From assembly GCA_050950785.1 (NCBI GenBank), contig JBMNIG010000021.1, positions 88,029-152,028 on the forward strand: a stretch of DNA of 64,000 nucleotides, given 5' to 3'. Both the position numbers and the translations under genes were made by a program. The DNA comes from Eubacteriales bacterium (lineage in GTDB: Bacteria; Bacillota; Clostridia; Oscillospirales; JAAYOS01). The notes below the pieces were generated by a model that was given only the letters and a program-made list of their open reading frames with translations, was not told the origin of the DNA and did not search any database. Positions 2,867-63,556 of this stretch are shown piece after piece (the stretch's first letter is position 1; the number at the start of each line of letters is the position of its first letter).

Positions 2867-2991
2867 TATTATTTAGAAATAGCTGGTTGCTATATTCCAC
2901 TAAAATAATGGTACTAAATAAACGATACACATAGGATATGATTGATTAAAGCTATTTTATCGTTTACCTTTGAAATATGGAGGATTTACAT

Positions 2992-3213
2992 ATGCTCTTC
3001 CGCAAAGATATTGAACCTATGTGCGCCTACTGTCATTACAGCAACAAACTTAGCAATGTTGAACTGTCCTGTAAATATAGAGGAGTCACTCGTGCAAGCG
3101 ATTCCTGCCGTCATTTTAAGTATGAGCCACTCAAGCGAGTTCCTCCAAAACCTGCTAGGCTTGTCACTCGTGGCTTAAGTGACGAAGATTTTAAACTTGA
3201 TGAAAATTTATAG
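2992..3213 (+). CDS. Small cysteine-rich conserved hypothetical protein
   Basis: Part of ORF 2977..3213. GGAGG lies 8 nt before the ATG at 2992. Cys pattern is CAYC..C..C. No family assigned. Confidence 0.45.
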   Translation: MLFRKDIEPMCAYCHYSNKLSNVELSCKYRGVTRASDSCRHFKYEPLKRVPPKPARLVTRGLSDEDFKLDENL

Positions 3214-52039: not shown

Positions 52040-53446
52040 ATGGGTCAGTTAATCCTGTTTGAAGTAAAGAAAGCAATAAAGAGTAGAAAAAACCGGATCG
52101 TCCTGGTCATATACTTCATACTTATTGCATCTATGATATTTACCAAAATTGACGAGGGATCGGCTAAGAGGACTGAAACCATCAATAACTGCCTGTTCCT
52201 GCAGGACTACTACAATCTTGACTCCGCAACCTACGGAAACCGGGCAGACCTATATGATTCACCTCTATTCAGGATCTATGCCGACAACGCCGCTGTTCGG
52301 GCTGAATATTATGGGCGTAAGGCGAACGCTTTGCTAAACCGCGACGTGTACGCAGAGCTCGAAGCTGATATTTCGCACTATACCAATGAGCTGACCTTTT
52401 ATACTAAGGATGTCGAGGAAATAGTTGAACGCGGGGAGCTCCTCAAAGGTCTTCCCTCTCGATATATGGACTATCCGTACCGTCTCCTTTCTTCAACAGA
52501 CGCAAGAAAGAATATTGTTGAATATTATCAGCTGCAGCTCGACTTTTTGACTTCACTGCGGGATAATGGGATCACGCCCATGTCCCATTATGATATGACG
52601 GGATTTGCATTTCTCTATACAGCATTCAATGAGCTGTTACCTCCAATCGCGCTTCTAATTGCTCTGTTGGTACTTTCCGACATAGTTTCAGGTGAATCGG
52701 ACTCGGGAAGCTTTAAGTTTCTCCTTCTTCAACCGATGTCAAGAGGTAGAGTGATAATAGCAAAGGCTGCCTCGGCCTTCATAATCATACTTATGTGGTT
52801 GCTTATTCCACTGCTTGTCACATTCCTGATAGTAGGACTTATCAACGGATTTGGAGATCCGGCATACCCTGTTCTCTATCTTAATGATTCCTTTTCGTCC
52901 ATATTCGCACCTGCAGCAGCTCCCAACTATGACAGTTCCTATCTTAGCAGGGACTTCTATAGATTTGTAAGTTGGGAGAGGGATATGGCCTTTTCCGGAT
53001 TGGAATACAGGCATGGCAATTTCTATTTAGGATACAGCAAATACGCTTCAAAAAACGGCAACTTTATATTTTTTGCACTGCCTAACGCAGAGTTGAACTT
53101 GGTGCCAATCGGTATTTTTATTTTGATGTGCCTTGTTCCTATAGCTCTGTATACTATATTTGCTGCAACGCTAGCCGTATTTGTCTCTACTTTGGCTCGG
53201 AAGGGCATTATCTCGATAGTATTAGGGACCTTATTAGGCATATTTTTCACAATATACACCGTATATCCTGAAAGTTTTAGCTTAGTCACAGCACTGCTTC
53301 CGCTTACATACAAAAACCCGGTGGCACTATTGTCGGGGTTAGGCGGCGCCACCGTACTATTTGGTATATTTGTGCTTGCCTTCTTCTCCTTACTGCTGTT
53401 GATCATAAGCGGTGTTATCTTTAAGAAGCGGGATATCATATGCTAA
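52040..53446 (+). CDS. ABC-2 type transporter permease (paralogue 2)
   Basis: 468-aa ORF with RBS GGGAGG. It has the same architecture as the preceding gene (GSFKFLLLQP, C-terminal ..KRDIIC). Confidence 0.7.
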   Translation: MGQLILFEVKKAIKSRKNRIVLVIYFILIASMIFTKIDEGSAKRTETINNCLFLQDYYNLDSATYGNRADLYDSPLFRIYADNAAVRAEYYGRKANALLNRDVYAELEADISHYTNELTFYTKDVEEIVERGELLKGLPSRYMDYPYRLLSSTDARKNIVEYYQLQLDFLTSLRDNGITPMSHYDMTGFAFLYTAFNELLPPIALLIALLVLSDIVSGESDSGSFKFLLLQPMSRGRVIIAKAASAFIIILMWLLIPLLVTFLIVGLINGFGDPAYPVLYLNDSFSSIFAPAAAPNYDSSYLSRDFYRFVSWERDMAFSGLEYRHGNFYLGYSKYASKNGNFIFFALPNAELNLVPIGIFILMCLVPIALYTIFAATLAVFVSTLARKGIISIVLGTLLGIFFTIYTVYPESFSLVTALLPLTYKNPVALLSGLGGATVLFGIFVLAFFSLLLLIISGVIFKKRDIIC

Positions 53447-53536
53447 GAGCGAAACCTTCAATGACAGACTCCCCCTATAGTGAATTTGCATAATGTATTA
53501 TCGTGCTAAAGCATTAAATTTCTATATTATTTATAA

Positions 53537-53566
53537 TTGACAGCGGATTACTTACTGTGATAGAAT
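53537..53566 (+). promoter_or_regulatory. Possible sigma-A promoter of the ilv-leu leader
   Basis: TTGACA (53537-53542), an 18-nt spacer, then TAGAAT (53561-53566). It lies upstream of the first Stem I module. Confidence 0.35.
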
Positions 53567-53606
53567 TACGCCCAATATCATCTAAATACATCCATTAAGC
53601 TTAAAT

Positions 53607-54027
53607 GCGTTGATCGGGACGAGTAAAAGCGGTCTACATTTCAGAGAGTCGCCGGGTGGTGCAAGGCGATATGTGTCCGTTTTGAAAATCACCCGTGAGC
53701 TGTTGACCGAAAGCAGAATATTCCAAATACGTTGAACGGGCTAAGTAGTTCCGTAGGATATCAGAGAACCGCCGGATGGTGCGAGGCGGCTATCCGAAAG
53801 AATGAACCTCACCCGGGAGTAGTTGGCTGAAAGATGAAAATTTTACTGGTCGAGTAGGTCATACCGGATACCCACCGTTATAGGGGTCGCGCGTTAAAAC
53901 GGCTTTGCCGGGAGATGCGTTTGAGGTGGTCGAAATAATTGTACCCATATGTACAATAAATCGGCAACAAGAGTGGTACCGCAGAGGATAAAACCTTTGT
54001 CTCTTGAATGAGGCAAAGGTTTTTTTG
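53607..54027 (+). promoter_or_regulatory. T-box leader with two tandem Stem I modules and one antiterminator/terminator
   Basis: Module 1 (53607-53700): AGAGAG at 53643-53648, distal loop GGUGCAA, specifier AUC at 53688-53690 followed by A. Module 2 (53730-53822): AGAGA at 53763-53767, GGUGCGA, specifier CUC at 53808-53810 followed by A. Downstream parts: F-box CCGUUA 53875-53880, Stem III hairpin 53938-53955 and T-box sequence AAGAGUGGUACCGCAG 53969-53984. The terminator stem is 53991-54003/54010-54022 with a U7 tract. Confidence 0.85.
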
Positions 54028-54069
54028 TTTAATACATAGCCATTAAATATTTTTCAGGAGGTTCTATAC

Positions 54070-55740
54070 ATGTTGCTGACAGGTGCGGAGATATTGATCG
54101 AAACCCTTATCGAACAAGGTGTCGACACAATTTTCGGATACCCCGGAGGGGCTGTCCTCAATATTTATGACGTGCTATACGACAAAAGCAAGCAAATCAA
54201 CCATATTCTCACTGCACATGAACAGGGAGCTGCACATGCAGCAGACGGTTATGCGCGGGCAACCGGAAAAACCGGAGTTGTAATAGCCACTTCCGGTCCC
54301 GGCGCCACCAACTTAGTAACAGGAATCGCTACAGCTTATATGGATTCGGTACCAATGATTGCAATCACGGGGAATGTCTCCACCGAGCTTATTGGGAGGG
54401 ACAGCTTCCAAGAAGTCTTTATCACGGGAATAACCATGCCCATAACAAAACACAACTTTTTTGTGACCGAAGTTGAAGAACTTGCAGATACAGTAAGGAA
54501 AGCGTTTCAAATTGCTAACAAAGGCAGACCAGGACCGGTTCTAATCGATATTCCAAAGGATGTCACCGCTCAAAAATGCGAGTTCACACCGAGAGCCAAG
54601 CTTAAAGTTGAATGCCCCAATCAGTTCGAGGAAGAAAGCGTTGAACTTGCAGCAAAGCACATAAATCAAAGCCAAAAACCACTTATCTATATCGGCGGCG
54701 GTGTAATATCTTCAGGAGCATCATCCCTTGTACGGGAATTGGCCGAGAAATCCAATATACCGGTCTGTTGTTCCATGATGGGATTGGGCGCTATGCCCTT
54801 TGATCATCCCAACAACCTAGGTATGATCGGTATGCACGGAAAGGTAGCGGCATCATTGGCTGCAAAATCTTGCGATCTGCTCATCGCCATAGGTGCCCGT
54901 TTTTCCGATCGTGTGGCAACCAAAGCAGGTAGTTTTGCACCGGATTCCTTCTGCATCCATATCGACATCGACCCTGCCGAAATCGGAAAAAACAGAGCGG
55001 TCGATCTCGATATCGTTGGCAACACATTTGACATTCTTTCGAAATTGACTCCCTTGGTGGAAAACACTCAGAGAGGGGCTTGGTTTGATACAGTCAATGA
55101 TTGGAAAAGCAAATTTGACAACATTCCAAGAAGTAACGATAGCAGTAATAATGTGCGGCCGTGGACTTTACTTGAGGAAATATCAAAGCGAGTTGGCGGA
55201 AACGAAATAATCGTAACAGACGTCGGGCAACACCAGATGTGGACAGCACAATACTACCCCTTTTCCTCTCCCAGAAGTCTGCTGACCTCCGGCGGACTAG
55301 GAACGATGGGCTATGGTCTTGGTGCGGCGATCGGAGCAAAAGTCGCACAGCCGGATAAACGAGTAATTTTGTTTATCGGCGACGGGGGTTTCCATATGAA
55401 TATGAACGAGCTGTGTACTCTCGTCAGCTACGACTTACCGATAACAGTGTTTGTTATGAACAATTCAGTTTTGGGAATGGTCCGCCAGTGGCAGTCTTAT
55501 TTCTACGACAATCGATATTCATGTACGACCCTCAATAGAAAGACCGATTATGTAAAGCTGGCCGAAGCATTTGGGGCCAAGGGCTTTCGCATAACATCCA
55601 ACGCCGATATGACCCAAGTCCTTGACCAGGTGTTTTCATACAACGGGCCCTGCGTAGTTGACTGCGTGATCGACCGGGACGAAAAGGTCGTCCCAATGAT
55701 CCCGTCAGGTAAGACGGTTGACGATATCATTATTGAGTGA
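54070..55740 (+). CDS. ilvB: Acetolactate synthase, large (catalytic) subunit
   Basis: 556-aa ORF with RBS AGGAGG. Its ThDP-enzyme motifs are GYPGGAVLNIYD, GPGATNLVTGIA and GGLGTMGYGLGAAIGAK..GDGGFHMN. Confidence 0.95.
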   Translation: MLLTGAEILIETLIEQGVDTIFGYPGGAVLNIYDVLYDKSKQINHILTAHEQGAAHAADGYARATGKTGVVIATSGPGATNLVTGIATAYMDSVPMIAITGNVSTELIGRDSFQEVFITGITMPITKHNFFVTEVEELADTVRKAFQIANKGRPGPVLIDIPKDVTAQKCEFTPRAKLKVECPNQFEEESVELAAKHINQSQKPLIYIGGGVISSGASSLVRELAEKSNIPVCCSMMGLGAMPFDHPNNLGMIGMHGKVAASLAAKSCDLLIAIGARFSDRVATKAGSFAPDSFCIHIDIDPAEIGKNRAVDLDIVGNTFDILSKLTPLVENTQRGAWFDTVNDWKSKFDNIPRSNDSSNNVRPWTLLEEISKRVGGNEIIVTDVGQHQMWTAQYYPFSSPRSLLTSGGLGTMGYGLGAAIGAKVAQPDKRVILFIGDGGFHMNMNELCTLVSYDLPITVFVMNNSVLGMVRQWQSYFYDNRYSCTTLNRKTDYVKLAEAFGAKGFRITSNADMTQVLDQVFSYNGPCVVDCVIDRDEKVVPMIPSGKTVDDIIIE

Positions 55741-55775
55741 GCTACTCATTTTCATTAATTTCAGGAGGTGTTTAG

Positions 55776-56291
55776 ATGCTAGAACAATTCGTCCTGTCCG
55801 TAATAGTTGACAATCATGCGGGTGTACTTGCAAGAGTATCAAGCCTTTTTAGTAGGCGAAATTTCAATATTGATTCACTTACTGTTAGTGCTACTGATTT
55901 CCCGGAAATTTCACGCATTACCATAGTTGTCAAAGGGGATGCCTACACTTTGGACCAAATCACAAAGCAGCTATTGAAGCTCCAAGAGGTCAAAAAAGTG
56001 GAACGCCTTTTCCCGGAAAACTCTCTATTTCGTGAGTTGCTATTGCTCAAAATCAACGCCCCGGTCGAATCCCGCTCACCGATAAAAGATGCCGTAGAAA
56101 TCTACAGAGCCAAGATCCTTGACATGTCACCCGTTACGATGATCATTGAGCTTACCGGTCAACAGAGCAAGATTGACGCATTTCTTGAGATCATGGAACC
56201 ATTCGGTATCGTTGAGATGTGCCGAACCGGAATTACGGCCATGGAAAGAGGCATGTCAACAATTTATGATCCCAGCACTATTACCGACTGA
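55776..56291 (+). CDS. ilvN: Acetolactate synthase, small (regulatory) subunit
   Basis: 171-aa ORF. The ACT domain reads LSVIVDNHAGVLARVSSLFSRRNFNIDSLTV. It lies directly after ilvB. Confidence 0.9.
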   Translation: MLEQFVLSVIVDNHAGVLARVSSLFSRRNFNIDSLTVSATDFPEISRITIVVKGDAYTLDQITKQLLKLQEVKKVERLFPENSLFRELLLLKINAPVESRSPIKDAVEIYRAKILDMSPVTMIIELTGQQSKIDAFLEIMEPFGIVEMCRTGITAMERGMSTIYDPSTITD

Positions 56292-56451
56292 ATCAGACCG
56301 AGTTAATTTGTTTGAAACCGAGTGACGAATGAAAATTCAATAGAAAAAGTCACCTCATTAAAGGCGAAATATCAAAACTTTCAAACCTAAGACCTTAATA
56401 CAAGAACGCAAAACTTTTATTAAATCAACTAACGAAAGGAAAGACGGACAC

Positions 56452-57444
56452 ATGAAGATGTATTACGACAGTGACTGCAACAGCACATTACTAAACGGCA
56501 AGACGGTTGCCGTAATCGGTTATGGCAGCCAAGGCCATGCGCACGCGCAAAACTTGAAGGACAGTGGCGTAAACACGATCGTAGGTCTGAAAGCATCATC
56601 CTCAAGAGTAGAGGTTGCTCGCAAGGACGGATTTGACGTTTATGAGACATCCGAGGCAGCAGCTCGCGCAGATATCATCATGGTGCTTGTTCCCGACCAA
56701 GTCCAGCCCGAGGTCTATCAAGAGAGTATTCGTCCACACCTAACAGAAGGAAAGGTCTTGATGTTTGCACATGGGTTTGCAATACATTTCGACCAGATCG
56801 TGCCACCGACAAATGTTGACGTGATAATGGTGGCTCCAAAAGGACCCGGCCACACCGTCCGCTCCCAATACCAAGAAGGTAGGGGCGTACCATCACTCAT
56901 CGCGGTCCACCAGGATGCTTCCGGCAAAGCAAAGGAGTACGCACTCGCTTATGCTTCCGCAATCGGAGCGGGTAAGGCGGGTATCCTCGAAACGACTTTC
57001 CGTGAGGAAACGGAGACAGACCTCTTTGGAGAGCAGGCAGTCCTTTGCGGTGGTGTTACCGAACTTATGAAAGCTGGCTTTGATACTCTGGTTGAAGCAG
57101 GTTACTCTCCAGAAATGGCATACTTCGAATGCGTCCATGAAATGAAGCTGATCGTAGATCTGATAAACAGCGGCGGATTTTCGTTTATGCGCTATTCCGT
57201 CAGCGACACTGCCGAATACGGTGATTACGTGAGCGGACGCAGAGTTATCACGGAAGAGACCAGAAAGGAAATGAAAAAAATCCTGCATGACGTACAAAGC
57301 GGCAAGTTTGCCTCCCAATGGTTGGTTGAAAACAGATCCGCAGGTCGTGCTAACTTCCTTGCCATGCGGCGAATGGAAGCGACTCATCCCGTTGAGACCG
57401 TTGGAGCAAAGCTTCGTGGCATGATGAGCTGGCTCAAAAAGTAG
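56452..57444 (+). CDS. ilvC: Ketol-acid reductoisomerase (class I)
   Basis: 330-aa ORF with the motifs [30 protein letters not shown] and [12 protein letters not shown]. Confidence 0.95.
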
Positions 57445-57458
57445 CAGGGTGTAGTGAT

Positions 57459-59156
57459 ATGGAACAAAAAATGAAGCATCGGAGCAAGTATGTAACGGTC
57501 GGTGACCAATCAGCTCCACATCGTTCGCTTTTTTACGCGCTGGGTTATACGGAAGAGGAACTGTCCAGACCGCTGGTGGGAGTATGTTCTGCATATAGTG
57601 AAATAGTGCCCGGGCATGCCCATCTTGACAAAATAGCTCAGGCCGTAAAGTCCGGCGTTCAAATGGCAGGCGGAACGCCAATCGTGTTTCCATCAATCGG
57701 AGTCTGCGACGGAATTGCTATGGGTCACGAAGGAATGAAGTATTCTCTAGCCTCAAGGGAGCTCATTGCCGATTCCATCGAGAGCATGGTAATGGCCCAC
57801 TGCTTTGATGCACTTGTGTTGATCCCGAATTGTGACAAAATCGTTCCGGGTATGTTGATGGCCGCTGCAAGACTGAACATTCCGGCAATCGTTGTCAGCG
57901 GAGGGCCTATGCTTGCCGGTAGGGTCGACGGAAATAGCTGTAGCTTGTCCTCTCTTTTTGAGGCCGTGGGCGCCCTCAAAGCAGGCCTGATAGATGACGA
58001 AAAGCTTTCGGAAATTGAACAAAACGCCTGCCCAGGCTGTGGTTCATGCTCGGGCATGTTTACCGCAAATAGTATGAACTGCCTTAGTGAAGCGATAGGT
58101 ATGGCCCTTCCGGGCAACGGTACTATTCCCGCCGTCAGCTCCGCACGCTTGCAGTTTGCCAAAAAATCTGGAATGGCGGTCATGGAACTGCTAAGGAAGG
58201 GCATTCGTCCGCTGGATATCCTGACGGAAGCGGCTTTTGCAAATGCTCTCGCAGTCGACATGGCCCTAGGCTGTTCGTCAAATAGTGTACTGCACTTACT
58301 TGCCATTGCAAACGAATGCGGTATCGAACTGAATCTGGACATTATCAACAGCATCAGCTCAAAAACTCCAAATCTCTGCAGGCTTAGTCCGGCAGGAGAT
58401 GACCACATTGAAGATCTGTACTACGCAGGTGGAGTACAGGTGGTCATGAATGAGCTAGCATCTAAATCTTTGATCGATACAACACTTCTTACGGTGACCG
58501 GCAAAACGGTGGGCGAAAACATTTCCAAGTCCCACAATATGAATGAATCTGTAATAAGGCCCATCCACCGACCCCATAGCCCTACGGGGGGCATCGCAAT
58601 ACTCCGTGGGAACCTGGCTCCCGACGGGGCAGTAGTCAAACGCTCCGCAGTTGCGGAAGAAATGTTGGTTTCCGAAGGCACTGCAAGAGTCTTTGACGGT
58701 GAACAGCAAGCAATCGATGCCATATATGGAAACCGGATAAAACCCGGCGATATTGTTGTAATACGATATGAGGGCCCGAAAGGCGGGCCGGGCATGCGTG
58801 AAATGCTTAATCCTACTTCTGCTCTTGTCGGCATGGGACTTGATAAGAGTGTGGCCCTGATAACCGACGGCCGCTTCTCCGGTGCCACCAGAGGTGCCGC
58901 CATTGGTCATGTTTCACCCGAGGCCGCCCAAGGAGGTCCCATAGCGCTGATAGAAGAGGGCGACAGGATCAAAATCGACATTATAAAAGGGACGATAGAT
59001 ATCCTTTTGCCGGAAGAAGTCCTCATACAGCGAAAATCTGCTTGGATGATACCAAAGAAGCCACCGCTCAAGGGTTGGCTTGAGCGTTACAGCAGGCTTG
59101 TGCATTCGGCAAGCACAGGCGCAGTATTAAACATCAATAAACCAGTCAATAAATGA
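57459..59156 (+). CDS. ilvD: Dihydroxy-acid dehydratase
   Basis: 565-aa ORF with the motifs [45 protein letters not shown] and TDGRFSG. Confidence 0.95.
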
Positions 59157-59163
59157 GGTGCCT

Positions 59164-60675
59164 ATGAAAAATCACATTAAGATTTTTGATACTACGCTAA
59201 GAGACGGGGAGCAATCACCCGGCTGTAGCATGAACCTGCAAGAAAAACTCGAGATTGCAAAGCAGTTGGAGAAATTGAAGGTGGATGTTATTGAAGCCGG
59301 TTTTCCAATCGCTTCGCCCGGAGACCTTGAGGCGGTAATAGCTATTTCAAAGGAAATCAAAGACTCGGCGGTTTGCGGCCTTGCACGCGCCCTCCCCAAA
59401 GATATAGACGCGGCATATGAAGGCATAAAAAATGCCGTGGCACCTAGAATCCACACCTTTATCGCCACGTCTCCAGTGCATATGCAGTATAAGCTGAGAA
59501 TGACTCCCGAGCAAGTTATAGAAAATGCGGCGACAATGGTAGCCTATGCAAAAAAATATGTTTCGGACGTTGAGTTTTCGGCAGAAGACGCATGCCGCAG
59601 CGAACCGGAGTTTCTCGTAAAAGTTATTCAAGCAGCCATCGACAGCGGAGCTACGGTAATCAACATACCTGATACGGTTGGCTACATTACCCCAACCGAA
59701 ATCTATAATCTTATAACCTATATCAAGAACAATACACGCGGTATAGAAAAGGTAGAACTGTCCGTGCACTGTCACAACGATCTGGGCATGGCTGTAGCCA
59801 ACTCTCTTTCAGCGGTCAGAGCCGGAGCTACGCAAGTAGAATGCACAATAAACGGTATTGGAGAACGTGCAGGCAACGCTTCGCTTGAAGAAGTTGTGAT
59901 GGCTATAGCCACAAGAGGTACTTTCCTTAATGCAAAAACAGGCATAAATACACAGCAAATCTATAAGGCCAGTCGCCTGCTTTCGTCAATAACAGGCATA
60001 CAGATGCCACCTAATAAAGCCATTGTCGGCTCAAATGCATTTGCTCATGAGTCGGGTATCCATCAGCATGGCGTGCTAGCAGAACGCACTACTTACGAAA
60101 TCATGACTCCCGAGTCTGTCGGCATCCCAAAAAACCTCATGGTACTTGGAAAGCACTCGGGAAGGCACGCCTTCAAAACCCGCCTTCATGAACTTGGTTA
60201 TGAGCTGTCACAAGAAGAGTTAGATCAGGCCTTTAAGATGTTTAAAAATTTGGCCGACAAAAAGAAGGTCATTACAGACCGCGACATTGAAGCCATCGTT
60301 GGCGGACATTCGGTATCCGTGAAGTCCGGGTATTACCAGCTTGACAATTTTGTCATAAACAGCAGTAACACCATATCCTCTACCGCCCTCATTTCTCTTT
60401 TTGCCGGAGAAGAGAAAATCGAAAATGTGGCTCGCGGTTTCGGACCGATCGATTCCGCATTCAACGCAATAAATCTTATCGTTGGCAAAGAGTTTAAATT
60501 GGTAGACTACTCACTACGTTCCGTAACAGAGGGCAAGGACGCCCTGGGCGAGGCCATAGTGAAACTTAGGAATGGCGGAAACATCGTCACCGGCCGGGGA
60601 GTATCCACCGACATAATCGAAGCAAGCATCAAAGCATATATCAACGGGGTCAATAAGCTCCTTGCAAACGCTTAG
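59164..60675 (+). CDS. leuA: 2-isopropylmalate synthase
   Basis: ORF 59158..60675; the likely start is the ATG at 59164 behind GAGGTG. It has the motifs [28 protein letters not shown] and [10 protein letters not shown], plus a C-terminal LeuA dimerisation/regulatory domain. Confidence 0.9.
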
Positions 60676-60696
60676 ACTCCCGGGAAGGAGCATTTC

Positions 60697-62295
60697 ATGA
60701 CAAGAAAAGCTTATATCCTCGATTCCACACTGCGCGACGGGGCACAAGGAGAAAACATCTCTTTTTCCATCGAAGATAAAATAAACATAGTGAAGGCACT
60801 GGATAGGTTGGGCATCAGCTTTATAGAAGCAGGCAATCCCGGATCAAATCCAAAGGATATTGAATTTTTCAAGAGAATGAAAAAAGTCCAATTGGAAAAC
60901 TCGGTGCTGGTCGCCTTTGGTAGTACCCGCCGCAAAAATATGCGAGCCGATGAAGATATTGCGCTTGCTTCCCTTCTATCTACCGAAACACCCACCACCG
61001 TTATCTTTGGAAAGAGCTGGGACCTTCATGTAACCGATGTTCTCTGCACTACGTTGGATGAAAATTTGCGCATGATCGAGGATACTGTCCGTTATCTAAG
61101 GGAAAACGGTAGAGAGGTAATCTACGATGCCGAGCACTTCTTTGACGGGTACAAGGCAAATCCCGACTATGCCCTGCAAACACTAAAAGCGGCATGCAAG
61201 GGTGGCGCGAAGTGCATCGTCCTCTGCGATACAAACGGGGGCTGTTTCCCCGGTGAAATAAAGGAGATCACGGCTGTAGTTGCAAAGCTGATAGATGTGG
61301 AAATCGGTATACATTGTCACAATGACACGGGATGTGCCGTAGCAAACTCCATTGCAGCGGTTGAGTCTGGCGCAAGCCATGTTCAAGGAACTTTCTTAGG
61401 ATTCGGAGAGCGCTGCGGAAATGCCAATCTAAGCACGATCATTCCAAATCTTCAGCTAAAGCTGGGTTTTTCCTGTATTCCGGATTCAAACATATCCCAA
61501 TTGACCTCTACCGCCCGTTACGTAGCCGAGGTTTCAAATATCCCCATCGTCGGATATGAACCGTATGTGGGATATAGCGCGTTTGCTCATAAGGCGGGCA
61601 TGCATGCGGATGGAGTATCCAAGGTTTCTCATTCCTTTGAGCACATAGACCCGTCCATCGTTGGAAACGATCGACGGTTCCTTGTCTCGGAAATGGCAGG
61701 CAGAACCACACTTATTCATAAGCTCAACAATATTTGCCCCGATCTTACCAAGGATTCACCCCAAACTAAGGAAATCATTGAGATCCTTAAAAAACTCGAA
61801 TATGAGGGATATCAATTTGATGCCGCCGAAACCAGCTTTGAGCTTGTGATCCGCAGGCAGCTTAAGCAATACAAACCATTTTTTGAACTGGTACACTTCA
61901 ATATAATCGGTCAAAAGCCGGTCGTTGAAGGGTATAGCTCATCGGCAATCATAAAAATCCGGGTCGGCGACAAAGAAGAAATCACGGCAGCGGAAGGCGA
62001 CGGTCCTGTACACGCACTGGACAGCGCCCTCAGAAAAGCACTATATGTTTTCTACCCGGAGCTTCGCAAGTCCAGGCTCTCCGACTACAAGGTCCGAGTT
62101 TTGGATCCACAAGCCGCAACAGCTGCAAAGGTACGAGTCTTGATAGAGTCAACAGACAGTGAAGATGTGTGGTCCACGGTGGGAGTCTCCACGGACATCA
62201 TCGAGGCCAGTTGGATCGCTCTCGTGGATTCGATCGAATATAAACTATTGAAAGAGAGTCAAAAAACCAAAAAACTTGCTACAGGAGGTAACTGA
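60697..62295 (+). CDS. cimA: Citramalate synthase (LeuA-related, CimA type)
   Basis: 532-aa ORF with [72 protein letters not shown] and [10 protein letters not shown] match the LeuA-related (citramalate synthase) subfamily pattern, not bona fide LeuA. It is the second HMGL-like paralogue in the same operon. Confidence 0.7.
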
Positions 62296-62296
62296 T

Positions 62297-63556
62297 ATGG
62301 GCATGACGATGACTCAAAAAATTCTTGCAGCACATGCCGGTCTGGAATCGGTATCTTCCGGACAACTTATTGAAGCATCAGTTGATTTGGTACTGGCAAA
62401 CGATGTCACAGCTCCGGTTGCAATTGTGGAGCTTGAAAAAGCAGGTCTGGAAACAGTATTTGACAAAGATAAAGTTGCACTGGTAATGGACCATTTCACT
62501 CCAAACAAGGACATAAAATCTGCAGAACAGTGTAAGCTTGTCCGTCAGTTTGCATACGGGAAAAATATCACACATTATTATGATGTGGGTGAGATGGGAA
62601 TCGAGCACGCTTTGCTGCCCGAGAAAGGGCTTGTGGCTCCCGGCGAGCTTATCATCGGGGCAGATTCACACACCTGTACGTACGGGGCGTTGGGGGCATT
62701 TTCCACCGGAATGGGCAGCACCGATATAGCATACGGCATAGCCACCGGACGTACATGGTTCAAAGTCCCGTCTGCCCTAAAATTTGTACTAAAGGGCAAG
62801 CCCCGGGGCTGGGTTTCGGGCAAAGATATAATCCTCCATATTATCGGCCTTATAGGTGTTGACGGAGCGCTATACAAATCAATGGAGTTTATGGGTGATG
62901 GTATTGCTCATCTCTCTATTGATGATCGCTTTACCATTGCAAACATGGCAATAGAAGCCGGTGCGAAAAATGGCATATTCCCAGTGGATGATGTCACGTT
63001 GGAATATGTCAACAGCCGTGTTGACAGGCCTTTTACCGAGTACACTGCCGACCCGGACGCAGAATACGAAGCGGTATATGAAATCGATCTTGGTACACTT
63101 GAGCCGACAGTTGCCTTCCCCCACCTCCCCGAAAATACATATGAGGTAAAGACGGCTCCCCATGTGGAAATCGATCAGGTAGTGATCGGATCCTGTACAA
63201 ATGGCAGGCTTAGCGATCTAAGGATAGCCGCACAGGTGATGAAGGGCAAGAAGGTCAAAAAAGGCTTGCGCGTTATCGTTATCCCCGCAACACAGCAGAT
63301 TTGGCTTGAAGCCATGAAAGAGGGTCTTTTCGATATATTCGTCAATGCTGGTGCGGTTGTCAGCACACCAACATGCGGTCCCTGCTTAGGAGGACATATG
63401 GGGATACTTGCTAAAGGAGAGCGCGCAGTAGCTACCACAAATCGCAACTTTGTCGGAAGAATGGGGCACCCCGAGTCCGAAGTATATTTGGCTAGTCCCG
63501 CTGTTGCTGCAGCGTCTGCAATAGCCGGTTATATAACAACTCCGGACTTACTTTAA
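62297..63556 (+). CDS. leuC: 3-isopropylmalate dehydratase large subunit
   Basis: ORF 62276..63556 trimmed to the ATG at 62297 (GGAGG 8 nt upstream). It has the aconitase-family motifs [20 protein letters not shown] and [10 protein letters not shown]. Confidence 0.95.

Follow-up and report, generated by a model that had tools for sequence, protein, structure and literature searches.

The window analysed here, a 64-kb stretch of DNA from a bacterium of the Eubacteriales, carries an operon for the synthesis of branched-chain amino acids (BCAA) that begins with ilvB (Table 1). Its leader occupies the 623-nucleotide (nt) gap between the gene of an ABC-2-type membrane protein (ending at 53446) and ilvB (starting at 54070), in which no open reading frame of 60 amino acids or more is found on either strand. 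The leader contains a single transcription-attenuating T-box riboswitch, in which two tRNA-decoding modules are placed in series before one expression platform. A first-pass annotation, made from the sequence alone, had observed this layout, describing two Stem I decoding modules with the specifiers AUC for isoleucine (Ile) and CUC for leucine (Leu) that share one antiterminator ahead of the ilv-leu genes. The observation is confirmed, as the Rfam alignment, a purpose-built covariance model of Stem I and the gene annotation agree on it. As is characteristic of the T-box family RF00230, the leader stands before amino-acid genes that match its specifiers, with ilvBNCD-leuA-cimA-leuC serving both Ile and Leu.

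Table 1. Elements of the dual T-box leader and its operon, numbered from the first letter of the window
Element	Position	Strand	Evidence
Promoter: -35 TTGACA (53537-53542), 18-nt spacer, extended -10 TGnTAGAAT (53558-53566)	53537..53566	+	11/12 matches, TG present
Module 1: complete Stem I with kink-turn (K-turn) GA motif, specifier loop with AGUA/GAA S-turn, AG bulge AGAGA (53643-53647), distal loop GGUGCAA (53658-53664)	53607..53700	+	Rfam partial match, 78.2 bits; model R1, 142.7 bits
Module 1 specifier AUC (Ile; tRNA-Ile anticodon GAU expected), then A53691	53688..53690	+	aligned to consensus specifier position
Upstream copy of Stem II 5' strand, GUUGACCGAAAG: UGACC and GAA half of S-turn, without 3' partner of its own	53702..53713	+	conservation, pairing
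Module 2: complete Stem I, AGAGA (53763-53767), distal loop GGUGCGA (53778-53784)	53729..53820	+	within full Rfam match; model R1, 135.8 bits
Module 2 specifier CUC (Leu; tRNA-Leu anticodon GAG expected), then A53811	53808..53810	+	Rfam alignment
Stem II: downstream 5' strand UGGCU (53824-53828) and GAAAG, variable apex, single 3' strand GAGUA (53852-53856) and GGUCA (53857-53861)	53822..53864	+	Rfam alignment, RNAalifold, pair counts (97.1% paired)
Stem IIA/B pseudoknot region, F-box CCGUUA (53875-53880)	53865..53886	+	Rfam alignment; 90.5% conserved
Extra conserved hairpin GCGCGUU..GAUGCGU between Stem IIA/B and Stem III	53889..53920	+	33-nt insertion in Rfam alignment; RNAalifold; one compensatory pair (columns 319/346 of alignment A2)
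Stem III, inner hairpin UUGUAC..GUACAA (53939-53956)	53926..53968	+	Rfam alignment, RNAalifold
T-box sequence AAGAGTGGTACCGCAG	53969-53984	+	sole copy
Antiterminator: helix A1 AGAG/CUCU, 7-nt bulge UGGUACC (UGGU 53974-53977), helix A2 GCAGA/UUUGU	53969..54005	+	93.8% conserved
Intrinsic terminator: 14-bp stem (53990-54023) and U run, overlapping the antiterminator 3' half	53990..54026	+	terminator scan
Operon ilvB, ilvN, ilvC, ilvD, leuA, cimA, leuC, running past the window end	54070..63556	+	NCBIfam equivalog matches

The Rfam search that the first-pass annotation had proposed gives one full-length T-box match (53723-54007, 96.8 bits, E 5e-20), the sole RNA in the window at the gathering threshold. 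When 53480-53735 is searched alone, a separate Stem-I-only match appears directly upstream (53601-53735, 78.2 bits, E 1.2e-17), limited to model positions 1-131, which comprise Stem I and the beginning of Stem II. Both matches are far beyond chance. Model positions 1-104 are aligned twice, to 53601-53703 and to 53723-53821, and all the sequence and structure features that define RF00230 are present, those of Stem I twice and those of the platform once. The two repeat units, of about 122 nt each (53601-53722 and 53723-53845), lie head to tail with a Stem I identity of about 66%, and the gap between the two Stem I helices measures 28 nt (53701-53728). As the earlier reading had stated, nothing that could end transcription stands between the modules: the 28-nt gap contains no T-box sequence, GC hairpin or U run, the T-box sequence occurs only once in the 670 nt scanned (53401-54070), and no second terminator is found in the 623-nt intergenic region, the other terminator-like site falling inside ilvB. 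In the platform, an antiterminator with a UGGN bulge is mutually exclusive with an intrinsic terminator, once only, with folding energies of -12.1 kcal/mol for the antiterminator vs -19.0 kcal/mol for the terminator.

Both modules appear to belong to the same transcript. The promoter lies about 40 nt upstream of module 1, with a predicted transcription start about 30 nt 5' of the module, and similar elements (a TTGACA -35 box and an extended -10-like element) are readable at the same place in the window and in the six related lineages described below (L203, L204, L206, L208, L209 and L210). A start downstream of module 1, which would have spoken against a double sensor, is not indicated, as the only good promoter is predicted 5' of that module. 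An internal promoter before module 2 was considered and rejected: CAGAAT resembles a -10 element, but no -35 element stands at the right spacing and the promoter scan found none.

The individual motifs can be read in each module. Those of module 1 start at 53611 (TGATCGGGACGAGTA), 53643 (AGAGAG), 53658 (GGTGCAA) and 53684 (GAAAATCA), and those of module 2 at 53763 (AGAGAA), 53778 (GGTGCGA) and 53804 (GAACCTCA). The motifs named in the first-pass annotation lie where it had put them, with a correction of one base for the Stem III hairpin TTGTAC..GTACAA, which spans 53939-53956. The specifiers were located by alignment to the family consensus GAA-n-NNN-R (GAA-n-codon-purine-CC). The base after CUC, usually a conserved purine, is A in the window (53811) and C in all six relatives. 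CUC-C and GUC-C are also present in single-module ilvB T-boxes (L036, L012, L004 and L005), and a C after the specifier seems to be tolerated in this group. Between the modules, the linker motif CAGAAUA (53714-53720, + strand), which resembles the promoter -10 TAGAAT, is 86% conserved in the seven lineages. No covarying or pairing partner was detected for it across these lineages, and it is not present in the dual leaders of Erysipelotrichaceae described below.

Relatives were collected by a protein search with IlvB, which gave 85, 84, 72, 72, 69 and 66% identity, and the contigs of all six lineages were fetched; the IlvB protein is also found unchanged on several metagenome contigs. Two covariance models of Stem I, R1 (built from the two window modules) and the broader R2, were used instead of a crude regular-expression screen (AGAGA..TGGTG and the T-box sequence). 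With R1, two adjacent Stem I copies are found in six of six relatives with IlvB identities of 66-85% (L203, L204/205, L206/207, L208, L209 and L210). Module 1, whose absence from relatives would have marked it as a decaying duplicate, is therefore retained in all these relatives, down to an IlvB identity of 66%. In each of the seven dual leaders only one T-box sequence and one terminator are readable, with none between the modules, and assemblies of independent origin (JGI, ENA, NCBI and Logan) show the same layout. The next relatives, L211 and L212 (61%) and L213, have a single Stem I copy with R1. The nearest GTDB species representative has an IlvB 58% identical to that of the window, and with R2 no double Stem I is found in any of 80 GTDB ilvB loci (IlvB identity of 58% or less), about a dozen of which have a single Stem I. 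In the single-module ilvB leaders (the GTDB loci and L211-L213), the specifiers are for valine in nine (GUC/GUA), Leu in four (CUC/CUG) and Ile in two (AUC). This distribution shows that the specificity has switched frequently on this operon among related Clostridia and, since related lineages use Ile or Leu specifiers singly, the dual form combines two such specificities. When metagenome contigs were scanned for pairs of Stem I distal motifs spaced by about 120 nt, at least 120 matches were obtained; among the matches listed, only one (L084) is a real T-box, the other 119 being chance matches or repeats. A relaxed pattern gave 49 matches in viral contigs, none of which is real. The dual form appears to be rare but recurrent.

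Conservation, pairing and covariation were evaluated on an alignment of the seven distinct dual leaders (A2) and compared with slid-partner controls and 500 shuffles. In module 1, 97.3% of the cells are paired, as compared with 33-48% in the slid controls, and none of the 500 shuffles reaches any of the measures. Compensatory double changes are present at 10 of its 21 pairs, contrary to what is expected of helices that drift freely, a possibility that had been raised against module 1. For module 2, 98.4% of the cells are paired, with a compensatory change at 3 of 18 pairs. Both AUC and CUC are invariant in the seven lineages, while the base preceding each codon varies (A or U before AUC). By segment, conservation amounts to 77% for module 1, 83% for module 2 and 36-49% for unconstrained leader segments, and it is this low identity of the unconstrained segments that makes the conservation of the modules a sign of selection rather than of recent common ancestry. 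Within one leader the two modules are 56-68% identical, and the duplication must thus be old. The first-pass annotation had proposed a tandem duplication that later diverged in the specifier; an old duplication of this kind, followed by a one-base change of the specifier, fits the data, with AUC and CUC one base apart. Judged by these substitution patterns, module 1 is not a decaying copy. All in all, these results show that both modules are real, that both are transcribed from one (predicted) promoter and that both are under selection.

A second case comes from the L084 locus retrieved in the metagenome scan. Here, a full Rfam T-box (2739-2969, 126.9 bits) has a Stem-I-only match directly upstream (2629-2750, 53.8 bits, E 1.5e-11), and the two modules score 56.8 and 68.3 bits with R2. 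The specifiers align to UUC for phenylalanine (Phe) and UAC for tyrosine (Tyr), before one platform. The gene after the leader encodes a PF04392 substrate-binding protein, whose named relatives are annotated as Erysipelotrichaceae. The same dual UUC and UAC layout is found in L214 (83% protein identity to L084), with a normal terminator (CGUCC..GGACG, then U6) and a permease and an ABC ATPase as the next genes; L215 (70% identity) has the Tyr module only. In both clades the paired specifiers are one base apart. The architecture has thus arisen at least twice, each time on other genes and for another pair of amino acids. As for L084 itself, no terminator follows its T-box sequence (2937-3020; compare 1140-1201 in L214), and the 3' strand of its antiterminator, UCCUU, could pair with the Shine-Dalgarno sequence GAGGAAG, pointing to a possible translational platform. 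Its lipoprotein signal peptide is broken by a stop codon, probably owing to an assembly frameshift.

What the two clades share beyond Stem I is found in Stem II. The first-pass annotation had pointed to about 20 nt of similarity past each Stem I (GTTGACCGAAAG and GTTGGCTGAAAG); the similarity is borne out, and these nucleotides correspond to the 5' strand of Stem II. In both clades the duplication takes in Stem I together with the Stem II 5' strand, with the GAA half of the S-turn, and ends inside Stem II. There are accordingly two 5' strands (GUUGACCGAAAG upstream and GUUGGCUGAAAG downstream in the window, AAUAUCUGAAA and AAUAUUUGAA in L084) for a single 3' strand, which reads GAGUA-GGUCA in the window and AGUA-GGAUAUU in L084. 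Across the seven lineages the upstream 5' copy is 80% conserved and the downstream copy 93%. Pairing of the upstream UGACC (53704-53708) with GGUCA (53857-53861) is possible in 85.7% of the cells vs 9-40% in slid controls. When the two clades are taken together, the upstream copy is able to pair with the single 3' strand in nine of nine sequences, and in none of them more weakly than the downstream copy. The duplex energies for the upstream vs the downstream copy are -7.6 vs -4.4 kcal/mol in the window and -6.9 vs -4.6 kcal/mol in L084, and in constrained folds the difference between one register and the other ranges from -0.3 to +2.7 kcal/mol in the window clade and is 4.5 kcal/mol in L084. 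It is probably through the duplicated Stem II 5' strand that a single platform can serve both modules.

Other partners for the upstream copy were considered and rejected. The 'Stem II' that Rfam forces on module 1, in which UUGAC pairs with GUUGA of the module 2 K-turn, is broken in L206, L208 and L210 (GAUGA), without compensation. A local mini-hairpin at the upstream copy (CUGU/GCAG) has one compensatory change, but also A-A mismatches in three of seven sequences and an overlap with the closing pair of Stem I, and is weak. A mimic in cis of the tRNA NCCA end is suggested by RNAalifold, which pairs RCCR (53706-53709) with the bulge UGGU (53974-53977), but the pairing is not conserved in the second clade, being absent from L084 and L214. 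Within the window clade, the RCCR-UGGU pairing is kept in all seven sequences through one-sided changes.

The genes downstream provide a context for a double specificity. CimA opens the citramalate route, on which IlvBNCD and LeuCD turn pyruvate into isoleucine, and LeuA adds leucine. In the window, cimA (citramalate synthase, TIGR00977, 720 bits) lies at 60697-62295, between leuA and leuC, which implies a threonine-independent isoleucine route sharing LeuCD; no ilvA is seen in the stretch of the operon that the window covers. The sharing of LeuCD gives a rationale for the joint control of Ile and Leu: with cimA, LeuCD and IlvBNCD make both, and the operon is needed as a whole when either runs short. 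The window contains no tRNA genes. Directly upstream of the leader, two genes for ABC-2-type membrane proteins (PF12679; 50841-53446) are found in the window and in L001. Of these, the proximal gene also occurs in the relatives with 84-85% identity (L203 and L204), and neither gene has an NCBIfam match.

How could two modules address one platform? PMC7583486 and PMC10482949 describe the Stem II S-turn as a clamp on the codon-anticodon duplex that is required for tight tRNA binding. Since the S-turn is needed for this, we propose that either 5' copy may complete Stem II, the two copies competing for the single 3' strand. With the upstream copy paired, module 1, Stem II and the platform would form a canonical tRNA-Ile T-box, with module 2 looped out of Stem II; with the downstream copy paired, the canonical T-box would be that for tRNA-Leu. 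In either state, a bound uncharged tRNA would put its NCCA end on the shared UGGU bulge and stabilize the antiterminator, leading to read-through, so that starvation for Ile or for Leu would be answered in an OR-like or additive manner. Bacterial tRNA-Ile, tRNA-Leu, tRNA-Phe and tRNA-Tyr generally carry an A73 discriminator, which would fit the variable U of UGGU in both clades. That both sensors may influence the single platform is suggested indirectly by the selection on both modules together with the presence of two Stem II 5' strands for each 3' strand. We give a probability of roughly 0.5 to the reading that either uncharged tRNA, Ile or Leu, completes a canonical T-box fold and stabilizes the shared antiterminator with OR-like or additive logic. 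The fuller picture of a natural two-input OR or additive RNA gate, whose modules compete for the Stem II 3' strand and which evolved at least twice through duplication of Stem I and half of Stem II with a change of one specifier base, is put forward more tentatively, at somewhat less than even odds.

Several observations weigh against this proposal. No double-sided covariation is found for either Stem II register, the 3' strand being invariant within the window clade, and the upstream copy could owe its complementarity to the duplication itself, without selection. This copy is altered in L209 and L210 (UGCCGAAC and GGCCAAAAA), three lineages (L208, L209 and L210) lack its outermost pair, and no convincing helix above the S-turn could be drawn for the upstream register. 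Minimum free energy folds of single sequences are unreliable for T-boxes, and uninformative for Stem I. That a tRNA-Ile on module 1 would reach the antiterminator is something we only infer from the sequences, and if the other module carried a charged tRNA at the same time, interference might make the logic less simple than OR.

These points leave room for a serious rival, to which we give about half the weight of the OR-like reading, namely a hierarchical or AND-like control in which only tRNA-Leu would touch the antiterminator, while module 1 with tRNA-Ile would modulate folding. The stronger upstream copy could trap the 3' strand unless tRNA-Ile reorients or sequesters it, or module 1 could work as a local, tRNA-Ile-dependent folding aid. 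The greater pairing strength of the upstream copy as compared with the canonical one, which makes it a possible anti-Stem-II element, is in line with such a control, as are the fact that a single bulge takes only one NCCA end and the finding that module 2 and the platform alone make up a complete Rfam T-box. However, module 1 keeps every tRNA-binding motif and an invariant codon, more than a competitor strand would need; complete tandem T-boxes, reported to be common on BCAA operons, already provide AND logic; and a cell under such control would be starved of Ile whenever Leu is plentiful. It is rather improbable that the roles are reversed, with module 1 as the principal Ile sensor and module 2 as a lineage-specific insertion into Stem II, silent or weakly signalling. 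The better Watson-Crick pairing of the upstream register and the C, instead of a purine, after CUC in six of seven lineages would agree with it, but module 2 is the more conserved of the two (83% vs 77%) with an invariant CUC, its downstream Stem II copy is 93% conserved, and the C after the specifier also occurs in single-module ilvB T-boxes.

The remaining explanations deny a function or even the existence of the dual element. A non-functional module 1, left over as a decaying duplicate in an ordinary Leu T-box, is very unlikely. Module 1 alone does score below the Rfam gathering threshold (78.2 vs 93 bits), but this is due to its lack of a platform, and the module is present in all seven lineages down to 66% IlvB identity with ten compensatory pairs and an invariant AUC, while the same architecture arose independently in the other clade. 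It is hardly credible that two complete tandem T-boxes with an overlooked first terminator, or an assembly artefact, are present here: the prior expectation that ilv tandem T-boxes are usually complete units is all that favours an overlooked terminator, against a featureless gap of 28 nt, copies that have diverged and a layout found in independent assemblies.

Compared with known systems, the leader shares with the canonical T-box (RF00230) the Stem I K-turn, specifier loop and double T-loop platform, the S-turn of Stem II, the Stem IIA/B F-box, Stem III and a UGGN antiterminator over a terminator, whereas the canonical form lacks the extra upstream Stem I (here AUC) and the orphan Stem II 5' strand. 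The leader of B. subtilis ilv-leu has the same CUC codon as module 2. That this is a single CUC specifier, as the first-pass annotation had stated, agrees with the entry for Marta et al. 1996 in PMC2494555. Its other statement, that tandem T-boxes repeat whole units, matches the descriptions in the literature examined. Those of B. subtilis thrZ are complete tandem T-boxes. Such complete tandems have, like the present leader, more than one tRNA-decoding element, but each unit has its own terminator and antiterminator, and the requirement for two uncharged tRNAs that is described for them gives an AND-like or sharpened response, whereas here there is one platform. A T-box sequence and terminator for each repeat, as in thrZ, are found neither in the window nor in the other dual lineages (seven of seven). 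The inverse case, i.e. T-boxes in which the terminator-antiterminator and not Stem I is duplicated, was reportedly described by Vitreschak et al. in 2008. T-box/T-box pairs are enriched on BCAA operons, including ilvB/leu of Bacillota (Morales and Merino 2025, PMC12452182), and 'partially tandem T-boxes' have been mentioned as partial duplications, with a mode of action acknowledged to be unknown (Zhang 2020, PMC7583486).

A further parallel is offered by RNAs with one platform and two inputs. The two-codon NT-box of C. acetobutylicum (Saad et al. 2013 PNAS), as far as the summary in PMC4052509 describes it, uses one platform and two tRNAs to balance two amino-acid pathways. According to the same summary, its two codons overlap in one specifier loop of one Stem I, while in the window each codon has a complete Stem I module to itself, 120 nt from the other; the base neighbouring each codon varies here, with no second conserved codon frame. 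Two sensors for a single platform are also present in the glycine riboswitch and in the guanine/phosphoribosyl pyrophosphate (PRPP) IMPLY gate (Sherlock et al. 2022, PMC9481103), and the window leader has this layout of tandem aptamers on a single platform. However, those aptamers sense small molecules, with the glycine aptamers binding the same ligand cooperatively, instead of being tRNA modules. The full-text literature searched, which did not extend to the surveys of Vitreschak 2008 and Gutierrez-Preciado 2009, yielded no account of one antiterminator shared by two Stem I modules. The mere existence of the dual-Stem-I layout may already have been noted in the literature.

T-boxes are the textbook case of one RNA for one tRNA, and tandem T-boxes are taken to give a sharper response or to depend on two signals. 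Against this background, the dual leader would, if the proposed mechanism is true, be a candidate for OR-type logic, which had not been observed in nature as of the 2022 survey of tandem riboswitches (PMC9481103). For structural studies it would offer a natural system in which to see how loosely Stem I, Stem II and the discriminator may be coupled, and the two clades together supply nine sequences. As the extra Stem I is below the Rfam gathering score (78 vs 93 bits), standard pipelines would call a plain Leu T-box here and could mis-assign the regulon. For the bacterium itself, the dual leader would mean that a multi-product pathway, making Ile and Leu via IlvBNCD, LeuCD and CimA, is switched on, with no protein regulator, as soon as one of the two amino acids runs short.

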